A DNA stretch of 62,830 bases, counting the filler, from Stramenopiles sp. TOSAG23-2 (Eukaryota), in assembly GCA_900128395.1 (NCBI GenBank). It is 34 parts of 34 records of this genome, joined end to end, with 100 filler letters (N's around TTAATTAATTAA, not from the genome) between each part and the next. Parts side by side here need not be neighbours in the genome. Positions count along the whole stretch, not along the records: positions 14,864 to 16,619 come from LT652391.1; positions 16,720 to 18,475 come from LT652392.1; 32 more parts are not named here. One strand, 5' to 3'. The notes beneath the pieces are model-generated. The model was not told the DNA's origin, ran no database searches, and saw only the letters and a program-made list of their open reading frames with translations. Positions 11,050 through 18,475 of the stretch are shown in pieces. The first letter of the stretch is position 1. Each line of letters starts with the position of its first letter. The translations under genes were made by a program, and so were the position numbers.

Positions 11050-13247
11050 NNNNNNNNNNNNNNNNNNNNNNNNNNNNNNNNNNNNNNNNNNNNTTAATTA
11101 ATTAANNNNNNNNNNNNNNNNNNNNNNNNNNNNNNNNNNNNNNNNNNNNAAATATACTAACAAGTACAAATATATGAAATTTGGTAAAATCTGGTAGTGT
11201 CCTGCTCTACTAAGGGAGACTGGTCACAAGGTTCAAACCTTTGTAAACCCTAGGTCCTAACCCGACCATTCAACATTGCAAAAACGTTATAAAATTGTAA
11301 AAAATAGTATTAAAATTGAATGAAGTCTAGAAATAAAATGTGATCGTAAACAGTATTATGTACAATTGGAAATAGAATCAAGTTACTTGATATTTATAGT
11401 TTGTGTGTGTGCATATATATATATATCACTTCTGAATTGAATTTTTTTACATTATATTTATTGTTTGTGTGTGTGTGTGTATATATATATCACTTCTGAA
11501 TTTAAATTTTTTTTACCATATTCTAATTAAATTCCGTTATATTTTAGTATACTAATGTTTTGTACTTAGTCCTATCAAATAGTATTATTCGAGTCCGATT
11601 TTAGATTTTAGATTTTAGATTTGTTACTTTTTCTTTATGCGGCATTTAGGATGTCGAATATTCTAATAGTATTCTATGTATGAGTATACTACTATTTTGA
11701 TACTTAAATGATACATCTCCTATCAACAATGATATTCGCATCCGAGTGAAAACAAAAAAAAGATATACACATATATACATTTTTAGTTACGAAAGATATG
11801 AAAGTCAGATAGATAGACCTGAACTCGTTTACACGTGTCCACATTGCAGAAAAATGTTACCAATTCCTGACTGGATTAAGGAGACACAAGTTGGTGTATC
11901 AAAAATGGCACAGCTGATAGCAGAATCATGCCCTGGTTTGCCGTACAAGCCAATATTGTTGAACGATGTATACTGTTAATTTTATATCTATACTGTACCA
12001 TCCTTTCTATCTCAGAGCATCTCTATTCTTCTGTCTTCAGGCATGGTTATATATATTTTCTTTGTGTTACAATTATCAGCGAGTGTGTAAAAGATATATA
12101 TGTAAATAAAAATTCAATTCTTTTTGATTAAAATATTTATAATAAATAATAATATCTAGGTTGAAAATATAATTTCTTTCTAAATACCGCGCACTTGTTT
12201 TTCTCAACATCGCAGTAAATTTTATAAAACTTCGTTGATTGTTTTAATCCTTCTTTTGCTTTTCTTTCTTTTGTTTTTGACGTTTCTGCTTTTGTTAGTT
12301 TGTTTCTTGTTTGACGTTTCTGCTTTTGTTAGTTTGTTTCTTGTAATATATATATTTAAACCATTGTCTAACCAACACTTCTCCCACTTTTCTATATTTC
12401 TTTCGTTCTACTCTCTACTTGTCACTTTCCTAAAAAAATGGGCTAGCATGGGTTAGCACTACCGATTTCGAGGAATCATTAACATCGGCTATTTCCCATT
12501 TCACCGACATCGGGAGAATCTGCATCGCGATAGCATTGCAGAAATTAGAGGGTGTAAAAAACCTATTTTTTTTCTCTTATCCATATGTTGATTATTTTTT
12601 TACATGTTTACCTATTAGAACTAAATAGGATTCCCATTTTTGGGTCACTTTCCATTGGGCTGTGATATGTCTAGAAAAGTCCGAGGCGGATTTATTCTTC
12701 GGATATTTTACCTATTCAGAAGGTCTCAATGCTAAACGCCTGTACGTTTAAGTATGTGAAAGCCTATCAAAAAGTGTAGACCTATGTTTTTTTAGGAGTT
12801 AAGTATTTTAGTATATTTAGCAGGTACACACTGTTGTCTAATGCTATTTCTATGTATAACGTTAAGTTCAGGCTACTTTTCTCGGGAACACTGCGTAGCA
12901 AGCCAANNNNNNNNNNNNNNNNNNNNNNNNNNNNNNNNNNNNNNNNNNNNTTAATTAATTAANNNNNNNNNNNNNNNNNNNNNNNNNNNNNNNNNNNNNN
13001 NNNNNNTGTTTCCGTTTTTTGTATCTATCTTACATATGTACTTGATGGAAGTGATAACTATTTATTATGAGTAATATTATTGATAAAAAAATATATATAG
13101 AAATTGTATAGTTGTGGTGCACAGTCCTATCTATCTCTAACACCTATAATATATTATATATCGATACCAGGTATTATTATTATTATTTGATTATTTGTGA
13201 GGTGTGAGGTGCTGAGGGTCTGAGGCTGAGGCTATGCTATATTTTTG

Positions 13248-13751: not shown

Positions 13752-14450
13752 ATGAATACATTGCAAATAAAACTAACGATTGTTGGAATATTAACAGTAT
13801 TTTCGGCTTATTCTATTAAGCGTGTATCATGGTCACAAAAGACTAATTTTGGAAGTAACAGTAAATCACAGAGTTTTAGTATTAGTAATAGTCACAGTCA
13901 TAATCCAGAAGAGGATCGTTCAACTGATTCTATACAAGGTACCGGTAGGAAGCTAGGTCCAAGTGACTGGGTAAATGACCTACCAACAAATTATTCTTTG
14001 TTAAATCAAACATGTCCATATAAACCAAAGTCTGCCTTAAATTCTGCATTATTAATGGCATTTGTAGGATTTGGACTTGAATATTGGTATTTAGGATTTT
14101 ACTCCGCGTTTCAATATAAAGCAGCTTTTTTTCTTTTTACTTTAATTTTGACTATATGGATACGTTTAATACCAATACCGAAAGGCGGTGACAGCTTTTT
14201 TACACTTTTTGGAACTAGTATTGCATGCATGGTCAGTTTTACTTGTTGGACATGGCAAGTTAGTAATTTTCTTGACATGTATTATGGAAGAGCAGTTGAT
14301 GCTTGTACCCGAGTACCTGATCCTATATGGAGTTTTATGAAAATTTATTACTGGAGGAAAGAGGTTGTGGAAATATCATCTAACATATTATTGAATAATA
14401 CGAATACAACTATCACAAATGCAACAAATATAACGAATAGTTCTGTATAA
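13752..14450 (+). CDS. TM2-domain-like membrane protein with signal peptide/anchor
   Basis: CPYKPKSALNSALLMAFVGFGLEYWYLGFY...K resembles the TM2 consensus (KS..TA.LL..F.G.FG...FYLG). Hydrophobic N-terminus. Confidence 0.65.
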   Translation: MNTLQIKLTIVGILTVFSAYSIKRVSWSQKTNFGSNSKSQSFSISNSHSHNPEEDRSTDSIQGTGRKLGPSDWVNDLPTNYSLLNQTCPYKPKSALNSALLMAFVGFGLEYWYLGFYSAFQYKAAFFLFTLILTIWIRLIPIPKGGDSFFTLFGTSIACMVSFTCWTWQVSNFLDMYYGRAVDACTRVPDPIWSFMKIYYWRKEVVEISSNILLNNTNTTITNATNITNSSV

Positions 14451-14645
14451 CAGTTTAATTATCTTAAAAATATACATTTTATGTATATGAATTATGAAAA
14501 TTTATTACTGGAGGAAAGAGGTTGTGGAAATATCATCTAACATATTATTGAATAATACGAATACAACTATCACAAATGCAACAAATATAACGAATAGTTC
14601 TGTATAACAGTTTAATTATCTTAAAAATATACATTTTATGTATAT
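14335..14645. repeat. Tandem duplication of the gene's 3' end (154 bp x2)
   Basis: 14335-14488 is identical to 14492-14645. Confidence 0.95.
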
Positions 14646-16592: not shown

Positions 16593-17173
16593 CTTGGCCT
16601 TCTTTGCTTCAGCTTATTANNNNNNNNNNNNNNNNNNNNNNNNNNNNNNNNNNNNNNNNNNNNTTAATTAATTAANNNNNNNNNNNNNNNNNNNNNNNNN
16701 NNNNNNNNNNNNNNNNNNNTAATAATGATAATGGAAGGGTACAACATCGTAGTCGCTTGTGAAAACATTTTTTTCATATAATATGCGAGAACGAGTTCGT
16801 ATAAAATACGAGCGAGTCGTATTATTTTTCTTATGCGTCGTAATAAATACGACGTATCTCTCTCAAAATAAATTGGTACACGCATCAGTATGAGTAGTAA
16901 AGGATAAAATTCTGGTCGGGAAGGTATTTTAAGGTAATTTTTTCTTTTCTAATGCTATTATGCTGTTAAGCATAAAAATAAATCTCAAAATTTATGTTTT
17001 TTACCTTAAAATTAGGCTAAAAAAGACCCCAATTTTGAGATTTTTTAGTGCTATTTCTATGCTAATTTGAAATAGCCCTAATCTTAACTATATCTACAAG
17101 TTATTGGGAAATCAAAATCCCATTAACACCGTTATTGGGAAATGAAAATCCTAATTAAATTAGTAGAAACAAA

Positions 17174-17584
17174 CTATTTTTTTTTAGCATTCTTCTTTCT
17201 ACCTTTATTAACTTTGGATTTTGTAATCTTTTTAGATTGAACTTTTGTATCTTTATTATCTTCTTCTTTTAGTTTTCTAAATGGCTCTCCTGTTTTAGGA
17301 TTAATAACAGGGTCAGTTTTCTTTTTAAAGGAAGTGCTACTTTTATTAATTCGTTTCCAATTTTTAAACATATCATTTAACGATGTTGAATTAGCTATTT
17401 GTTTAGCTTCCTCAACTGTTCGTGCTTCTATTGTATTAACAAATTCGTAATGTATCTTACGATGTATTTTATATAATTTAATAGGCATTTTTTCACGCTG
17501 TTTTTCAATAGCATTTAATTTAACAGCTTGTTCTTGAAGCTTAATATTTGCTTCATTAGCAATTCTTTTTTGCTCTTCTAATTG
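17174..17584 (-). pseudogene. Second internal gene fragment (Lys-rich) of the TIR element
   Basis: Frame QLEEQKRIANEANIKLQEQAVKLNAIEKQREK-MPIKLYK...INPKTG...KKK* is joined out of frame to the protease fragment. Confidence 0.45.
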
Positions 17585-17748
17585 AAATTTTGACAGTTGT
17601 TATTAAAAGCAGAATAAGGAAGAAACTTACGACCCATATGTTTTTTGGTATTAGCCATTACAGTATTTAATGTTAATGACTTATTTACTGGAACTAACTT
17701 ACTTTCAGCATTTTTACGAACACCAGCCATTCCCATTCTAATAACTTT
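17578..17748 (-). pseudogene. Fragment of permuted papain-like (PPPDE/NlpC-type) protein inside the TIR element
   Basis: KVIRMGMAGVRKNAESKLVPVNKSLTLNTVMANTKKHMGRKFLPYSAFNNNCQNF, containing a YxxxxNNCQxF catalytic-Cys motif. Cut at both ends. Confidence 0.55.
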
Positions 17749-18055
17749 AAGATTAGGGCTATTTCAAATTAGCATAGAAATAGCACTAAAAAATCTCAAA
17801 ATTGGGGTCTTTTTTAGCCTAATTTTAAGGTAAAAAACATAAATTTTGAGATTTATTTTTATGCTTAACAGCATAATAGCATTAGAAAAGAAAAAATTAC
17901 CTTAAAATACCTTCCCGACCAGAATTTTATCCTTTACTACTATATACGATATATATGTATGCATATATATATATAATACAATATCATATCCTCTAAAATA
18001 TACATATCATATTTTTAAATATAAATATTAATTTTTTATATATAATTTTGTCAAT

Positions 18056-18475
18056 TTACTCTACTTTACCACCTTCACCTCCCATCAACACCATTCGTTG
18101 GTGTTGTTCCGTTAACGTTAACGGACTATGCTCTTTTGAAAACCCTGTAGCTGAATGCGCACCAGCTGTTGCCTCGATTACACCGGTTGGTGCAATATTG
18201 TCGGGTATATCATTGGCGCTTGCTGCTGCAGTTGCACCACTTGCTCCACTCATGCTACCCGTTGCAGCATCTTGTTCACCAGCTGAAGATGTTGCACCAC
18301 TTTCGTGAACACCAGTTGGTCCACGTACTTCATCTGCTCCAGTTGCACCAGAAATACCTGTTGATCCGCTAAAACCAGTACCACCTGTACCGTCAACACC
18401 TAGAATTGCTTCCAATTCTTTCTCTGTTGCATTTACCGCGTTTTTCGTCACAAGGTAACTAGTTGCGCTTTTATT
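18056..18475 (-). CDS. Gly/Ala/Thr/Ser-rich low-complexity protein, 3' end
   Basis: Open frame with repeated SGATG/GATA motifs and coding-like GC content. Confidence 0.6.
   Translation of the reverse strand, partial: NKSATSYLVTKNAVNATEKELEAILGVDGTGGTGFSGSTGISGATGADEVRGPTGVHESGATSSAGEQDAATGSMSGASGATAAASANDIPDNIAPTGVIEATAGAHSATGFSKEHSPLTLTEQHQRMVLMGGEGGKVE

Follow-up and report, generated by a model that had tools for sequence, protein, structure and literature searches.

What is a segment of about one kilobase that carries the ends of a Polinton and almost nothing between them? The question is raised by a 1,049-bp element at positions 16893-17941 of the window, the 62,830-nucleotide stretch of the Stramenopiles sp. 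TOSAG23-2 assembly analysed here. An original prediction, made from the DNA alone, had read it as a defective or MITE-like derivative of a Polinton or Polinton-like virus (PLV) that could be mobilised in trans.

Structure of the element

The element is real and sits on a single 1,756-bp contig (C10; window 16720-18475). The window itself chains 35 pieces, nearly all of about 1.75 kb, via N linkers, so the rest of it is no neighbourhood of the element. The left (16893-17087, plus strand, opening with AGTAGT) and right (17747-17941, minus strand, closing with ACTACT) terminal inverted repeats (TIRs) have the predicted positions and length: the arms are 195 nt, 100% complementary and spaced 659 nt apart. 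Among the window's 1,411 inverted pairs they are the longest; the remaining 24 pairs listed all fall on N linkers. Both arms start with AGTAGT, as predicted, and outward identity between them halts exactly at that motif. GC content is 27% in the element, and 34% and 40% in its flanks. Written as (AGT)2//(ACT)2, these ends are a Maverick-Polinton end motif, the commonest among vertebrate Mavericks, most copies of which are defective, according to passages of PMC8097293; the claim of Polinton-type ends is thereby borne out. No target-site duplication (TSD) of 1-12 nt is found, in agreement with the predicted absence of a 6-bp duplication (flanking 6-mers AGTATG and ATATAC, 1/6 alike).

A 21-bp direct repeat had been placed within the left arm. 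It does exist, but its two copies (17100-17120 and 17131-17151) lie just inward of the 195-bp arm, in a subterminal segment (17088-17173, plus strand) and on the left side only; in read run X4, described below, the repeat has a 31-bp period and occurs in variant, longer arrays. This segment is probably the inner part of a longer parental TIR of ~280 bp, gone from the right arm. From terminus to ORF-A stop the element measures 284 bp, against 246 bp in a sister element whose TIR reaches the ORF-A stop. Given this 246-bp sister TIR and the 284-bp distance, the right arm appears to have been clipped, or re-copied from the left end.

Two broken genes

The element is short, non-coding and TIR-bounded, and both of its ORFs are broken. 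With 659 bp, its internal space is too small for pPolB, rve integrase, ATPase, protease and capsid genes. The interior consists, as foreseen, of two gene scraps joined out of frame, both on the minus strand. The first (17174-17584) is the 3' part of ORF-A, with 136 codons and the stop, the start codon and first 20 codons being lost. These 136 codons are 100% identical to an intact database protein (P0036). Intact ORF-A is a 156-aa coiled-coil, lysine-tailed orphan with 29 close relatives among 39 candidates; no Pfam family reaches its cut-off, neither IMG/VR nor GTDB yielded a relative, atlas scores were <=0.83, and there are 12 representatives only.

The second scrap (17583-17747) is a middle fragment of ORF-C, 54 codons long, that keeps the Cys motif YSAFNNNCQNF. 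Intact ORF-C is a 216-257-aa permuted papain-like protein (PPPDE/LRAT-type) with 15 close relatives among 72 candidates, and H93, E109 and C163 are invariant in a 13-sequence alignment; because the invariant His and Glu are absent from its 54 codons, the fragment cannot be catalytic. An intact natural homologue, modelled at pLDDT 73, matched a protein of Yellowstone Lake virophage 5 (A0A0A0RS01; E 6e-18) and, in VIA, the deSUMOylase 2wp7 (Z 8.9, rmsd 4.0, 136 aligned), followed by CLN5, Aichivirus 2A, YiiX and TseH, while Foldseek matches in the PDB were weak (best E 0.098, PPPDE1). The top six VIA rows all belong to the permuted papain-like fold class. On this modelling, intact ORF-C is predicted to have a permuted NlpC/P60 fold with the His before Cys dyad. 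It thus resembles PPPDE/DeSI-LRAT proteins and the virophage 5 protein in fold and in its invariant His and Cys, but lies below the curated Pfam LRAT cut-off of 24.3 (21 bits for P0006, 17.9 for the fragment in the element), and the element itself holds 54 codons without the His. The codon comparison over this fragment (3 silent, 8 changed) is based on too few differences to interpret, and at a short ORF-C-like match elsewhere (L022) no TIR was seen.

In IMG/VR, 128 of 284 candidate stretches encode an ORF-C relative. Among the best 80 of these loci, a virophage MCP is encoded at 16, a second MCP-sized protein at 36 and an A32 ATPase at 31. The second MCP-sized protein has no Pfam match; we take it to be PLV-type. 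The prediction had placed similar NNCQ papain-like proteins in virophage and PLV genomes, and these IMG/VR loci bear it out: the family is permuted papain-like and is carried by virophages and PLV-like contigs. The homologue searches for ORF-A and ORF-C ruled out a host-gene origin of the interior peptides, one of the outcomes that would have refuted the prediction.

Deletion junctions and read evidence

Junction 1 (17583-17584) joins ORF-C to ORF-A out of frame with 2 nt of microhomology, and junction 2 (17747) joins the right TIR into mid ORF-C with a 1-nt overlap. The element arose through these two deletions, with microhomologies of 2 and 1 nt. Four of 24 listed read runs (X1-X4) were compared with it. 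X1 is probably the source run and hence not independent, X4 comes from the same study under another organism label, X3 is a metagenome from another study, and X2 gave no matching record. In X1, record 4 (17496-17670, 175 nt, no other letters) bridges junction 1, and record 5 (17668-17776) spans junction 2 with 30 TIR-side letters, one short of the bridging rule; depths are 28 and 27 for the junction records, 34 for the right flank and 66 for the arm. The ORF-A and ORF-C continuations among those shown in X1 are sister-type only, and among its loose ends sequences of the sister contigs C6541 and C6243 are also present. The junctions of the element were seen in this one run, probably its source sample.

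Run X4 has three records that match 16927-17410, 17381-17584 and 17583-17747 without any difference. Its records 21 and 22 share positions 17583-17584 and differ beyond them, record 21 running on into the missing 5' part as intact ORF-A and record 22 as intact ORF-C; at 17747, X3 also continues as the upstream part of ORF-C. One X4 record stops ~80 nt upstream of the ORF-C start, where C6243 ends in TIR-inner sequence, and from these two ends we conclude that ORF-C adjoins the right end. The description as a defective deletion derivative therefore stands, on two junctions and on genes that are intact and 100% identical in X4, with ORF-C also in X3. Sequence searches of the contigs found no identical parent in the assembly, only sisters at 87-93%. 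In eight RNA runs 20-31% of the words are present, a word share and not a measure of expression.

Sister elements

Searches of the assembly with TIR and interior gave four sister contigs (C8173, C5475, C6541 and C6243) at 84-93% identity, and the sister ends on C8173 and C5475 are 84% identical over 141 nt to the left TIR of the element. The terminal pattern occurs at five places in the assembly, adding C2137; a reversed control of the pattern had 4 matches at <=2 mismatches, and the five places were counted because they are exact and extend into TIR homology. At C2137 (L045:632-716) lies a third sister terminus; its TIR is a variant, it has a flank of its own, and its other end was not found. 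By 55-nt end overlaps, C8173 leads to C6541, which branches to C5475 or C6243. The path C8173-C6541-C5475 (pieces L002:456-853, L004 and L023:409-3412) measures 3,867 bp between AGTAGT ends, with 246-bp TIRs and a perfect 6-bp TSD, TATGAC, on both sides, for which the chance is ~3-6 x 10^-4 per pairing, three pairings being possible. This 3.9-kb sister encodes ORF-A, ORF-B, a RING protein, a 410-aa orphan and two short ORFs, five intact ORFs lying inside C5475. No polymerase, integrase, capsid gene or helicase was recognised among them. For the 410-aa ORF, 0 of 2,531 candidates were accepted, none was found in IMG/VR and atlas scores were <=0.82; ORF-A, ORF-B, the RING ORF and the 410-aa ORF had matches at 0 of 89 viral loci.

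C6243 has the layout of C5475 minus ~2.2 kb, fused to a 3'-truncated ORF-C. Because C5475 breaks a gene that C6243 continues, neither derives from the other; both also hold a truncated further gene, and the two point to a larger ancestor. Three differently deleted forms thus coexist in the assembly, each with two breaks and its ends kept, and the 3.9-kb sister is arguably a better candidate for trans-integration than the 1,049-bp element. What is new here is a sister subfamily at 84% TIR identity, a TSD-flanked element of ~3.9 kb and a third, differently deleted form.

Two smaller features of the sisters may be recorded. A 38-55 bp motif lies just upstream of three starts (L023:1179-1216, 1496-1550 and 2790-2827) and is a candidate viral promoter, and the split point of C5475 and C6243 (L023:1158-1174, L005:78-94) ends in AGTAGT, by chance or as a cryptic end. 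Public assemblies hold two further ORF-C/ORF-A fusions with other breakpoints (P0015, on a 1,264-bp contig, and P0059). P0014, P0020, P0062 and P0064 are ORF-A or ORF-C fused to bacterial genes, probably on chimeric contigs; Pfam identifies DegT and rotamase among the partners. In P0061, ORF-A and ORF-C stand in inverted order. As the bacterial-gene and inverted fusions mark artefacts within this public set, we give it little weight.

Class membership and the search for a parent

The 32.8-Mb assembly contains one copy of the element, a lower bound in so fragmented an assembly. The TIR search proposed with the prediction thus returned the single copy and its 84-93% sisters, but not the expected parent with pPolB, ATPase, MCP and integrase. 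No pPolB, integrase or capsid gene was found linked to the ends of the element, and a parent with these ends and core genes was not found in IMG/VR, GTDB or the assembly, the last searched by its ends and for ATPase, pPolB and MCP. A pPolB family search of the assembly gave one weak match, an intron-containing host B-family polymerase that we take to be Pol delta, and the virophage MCP family and one PLV-type MCP protein had no match there, in a search run without a positive control. The TIR patterns gave 0 matches in IMG/VR and then 2 that do not extend into TIR similarity, and 0 in GTDB. Three A32-ATPase contigs of PLV build are present in the assembly (C2422, C2965 and C1829; L009-L012), with an A32 ATPase, a helicase or primase, methyltransferases and a fibre with Peptidase_S74; they share no DNA with the ends of the element.

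To which class, then, would the parent belong? Its ends and the sister TSD speak for a Maverick-Polinton, and ORF-C speaks for the PLV/virophage gene pool. The likeness to Maverick-Polintons lies in TIRs within the range of 100-1,500 bp (195 bp and 100% identical in the element, 246 bp in the sister), in the (AGT)2//(ACT)2 ends, where (AG)3//(CT)3 is the other accepted form, and in a 6/6 match on the sister path C8173/C5475, where a 5-8 bp TSD is expected (passages of PMC8097293; bioRxiv 10.1101/2023.08.22.554363). A 6-bp TSD is what rve integrases leave (PMC12220804, in part). Maverick-Polintons as described in those passages are 13-25 kb long, whereas the element has 1 kb and the sisters 2-4 kb, in a protist host; neither the element nor the 3.9-kb sister has a core gene (pPolB, rve integrase, ATPase, protease or capsid), and the element lacks a TSD. 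With PLVs and virophages it shares a gene, through the ORF-C relatives in IMG/VR, while MCP and packaging ATPase are absent from it.

MITEs are derivatives of cut-and-paste transposons, short, non-coding, TIR-bounded and internally deleted. The element resembles them as a short, non-coding, TIR-bounded internal deletion derivative, but it has a viral interior, lacks many near-identical copies and shows neither a TSD nor an empty-site allele. The MITE-like character that had been proposed could not be upheld, with one copy in the assembly, no TSD and flanks from two loci. Transpovirons are linear DNAs of ~7 kb with a helicase that are tied to mimiviruses; no helicase was recognised in the element or the 3.9-kb sister, and integration here is into the host, with a TSD. 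The element works like a non-autonomous Polinton derivative, yet fits neither class: it is not filed as a Maverick-Polinton because it has no core genes and no TSD, nor as a MITE because there is one copy.

Host flanks

The left host flank (16720-16892, plus strand) contains the last codons of a PRELI-like-domain gene, followed by intergenic DNA, and the right host flank (17942-18475, minus strand) the 3' end of a host gene that is very large and rich in repeats. Contig C2441 is element-free and aligns with the left flank as far as the edge of the element, beyond which it enters an oxidoreductase gene; C1305, also element-free, aligns in the same way with the right flank and carries on for another 17 kb unrelated to the left flank. 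Compared as whole contigs, C2441 shares no sequence with C1305 and C1454 at E <= 1e-15, and no flank-to-flank joint lacking the element occurs in the 4 runs compared, X2 giving no record. The empty-site allele that had been suggested as a check was thus not obtained: the element-free counterparts exist on C2441 and C1305 but do not join. By these alignments the element would join two host loci, and the TSD would be missing because the left and right flanks come from different loci. C1305 is possibly a paralogue, three other copies of the right-flank gene existing at 81-93%.

In the proposed read check at the host sides, X1 covers the right flank at the depth given above; for the left flank X1, with records partly filtered, gives no cover. 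The X1 word share, 0.92, falls between the values expected with the left flank (0.97) and without it (0.85). Two points favour a real join: the X1 arm record is exactly 195 nt long, which implies a branch at the outer end of the arm, and no other contig of the assembly has this terminus. Only two flanks touch the TIR in the assembly.

Among further observations on the host sequences, the C2441 gene whose last codons form the left flank (L144:1245-2888) has a weak LRAT-like permuted papain domain (E 0.045) beside its PRELI-like domain (E 1.5e-9). The right-flank gene (window 18056-18475, L143, L145 and L146 cover its 3' end) encodes a very large coiled-coil protein rich in repeats, of which there are four diverged copies or haplotypes (C10, C1305, C1454 and C3305). 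In intergenic C1305, 35 nt (L136:2777-2811) are 83% like part of the TIR, which may be AT-rich chance.

Origin of the element

Its single copy, the clipped-looking right arm and the flanks on two loci make one origin the most likely, and we consider it somewhat better than an even prospect: a dead, end-retaining double-deletion remnant of a Maverick-Polinton-type virus element, seated at a host rearrangement junction, that encodes nothing functional and has not amplified. Full-length members would have replicated by protein-primed strand displacement starting at their TIRs, and an rve-type integrase would have inserted them. Repeated template switches or end-joining would have taken out the interior but spared the ends, and clipping, or re-copying of the left end, would have brought the right arm to 195 bp. 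Two insertions at separate host loci would have been involved, the left end of one being joined to the right end of the other by ectopic recombination between TIRs or by a deletion uniting two copies; this step would best explain the missing TSD, and the element would mark a host rearrangement. A parallel is provided by eri-6/7 of C. elegans, where Polinton remnants, largely deleted, and their TIRs lie at the breakpoints of host inversions attributed to ectopic recombination (passages of bioRxiv 10.1101/2024.01.15.575659); that rearrangement was mapped in 550 strains, whereas ours is deduced from two element-free counterparts in one fragmented assembly. Truncated EMALEs of Cafeteria are likewise shortened integrated virus genomes of a heterotrophic flagellate with TIRs kept, which "must have regenerated" (PMC8547959, in part), but they measure 5-15 kb against 1-4 kb here, where several nested forms occur and no virophage MCP was found in the assembly in the search noted above.

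It is doubtful, though worth weighing, that the element is instead a mini-genome deleted on free linear DNA, which kept both origins, was copied by a helper pPolB and inserted by a helper integrase, the mismatched flanks then reflecting two collapsed copies or a chromosome break that captured it. Its two ends are intact, with 100% identity, each of the three forms in the assembly retains its ends and has two breaks, the 3.9-kb sister has its perfect TSD, and P0015 and P0059 add fusions with other breakpoints. However, each form is single-copy and none stands at two sites, and a TSD cannot separate deletion before insertion from deletion after it. The interior depth in X1 is not double that of the flank, a weak measure, no further contig has this terminus, and the other database fusions (P0014, P0020, P0062, P0064 and P0061) involve bacterial genes or inverted order.

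Amplification or assembly could also have created what we see, if direct MDA chimeras, or a mis-join across the identical 195-bp arms, had produced the short interior or the pairing of flanks. With contigs amounting to 5-8 million letters, the source resembles small single-cell runs; the microhomologies are short ones, two loci supply the flanks, 10 of 15 ORF-C cluster members among those listed are truncated, and short-read assemblies of protist EVEs are error-prone according to parts of PMC10120064. Against this, two co-linear chimeras 165 bp apart would be needed at flank-like depth, an identical full-length template was found in neither X1 nor the assembly, only two flanks touch the TIR, and inverted joins make up as much as 91% of MDA chimeras (bioRxiv 10.64898/2026.06.11.730069, in part). 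A chimera is hence quite unlikely, and keeps that small probability because the left junction has no cover in the runs compared. The simple fold-back chimera that the prediction had named as its own undoing is ruled out, since the flanks differ and the repeat halts exactly at AGTAGT, which a fold-back would not do.

The least probable account is a parent natively small (~4 kb), a modular capsid-less satellite with Polinton ends and accessory genes (ORF-A, ORF-B, RING and the protease-like ORF-C) that borrows the rest from co-resident PLVs: close ORF-C and ORF-A homologues with a recorded contig are all on contigs of <=2,624 and <=2,473 bp, respectively, none is found in IMG/VR or GTDB, and C5475 has five intact ORFs and a conserved motif upstream of three starts, but terminal genes beside TIRs break short-read assemblies anyway, the truncated gene in both C5475 and C6243 implies a larger ancestor, and distant ORF-C homologues lie in capsid-encoding genomes at 52 of the 80 best IMG/VR loci.

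Wider meaning and other features of the window

Non-autonomous copies are reportedly mentioned in the Polinton/Maverick papers of 2006-2007. The literature searched, most of it open access, gave no account of non-autonomous PLV or Polinton minis of 1-4 kb in protists, and the accessible parts of PMC3014272, PMC12945077, bioRxiv 10.1101/2025.02.07.637071 and 10.64898/2026.07.28.741278 contain nothing on them. Descriptions of protist EVEs usually present full-length, intact elements, which are found by capsid genes or size filters; passages of PMC10120064 call them largely intact and hard to assemble. A large PLV survey retained 6-80 kb inserts only (PMC12220804, in part), so that MCP-based or size-filtered surveys of this kind would miss 1-4 kb minis by design. 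Nested, end-retaining derivatives of this size in one assembly reveal how such elements decay and that host rearrangement junctions are among the places they can occupy.

As a tentative conjecture, more doubtful than not, marine protists may carry 1-4 kb Polinton minis without capsid or polymerase, arising by recurrent end-retaining deletions, relying on full-length PLVs or Maverick-Polintons for copying and integration in trans, acting like defective-interfering genomes or MITEs and seeding host rearrangements. Identical deleted forms at several loci, each with its own TSD, would directly demonstrate Polinton-type trans-mobilisation and hint at parasites of parasites; if there are no such forms, the element is a tidy fossil.

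Elsewhere in the window, exact two-copy tandem duplications of 157, 143 and 34 bp (14335-14645, 29225-29510 and 12276-12344, respectively) are possibly assembly artefacts, and positions 26175-27325 hold a layered GAT-rich minisatellite with periods from 15 to 268 bp.
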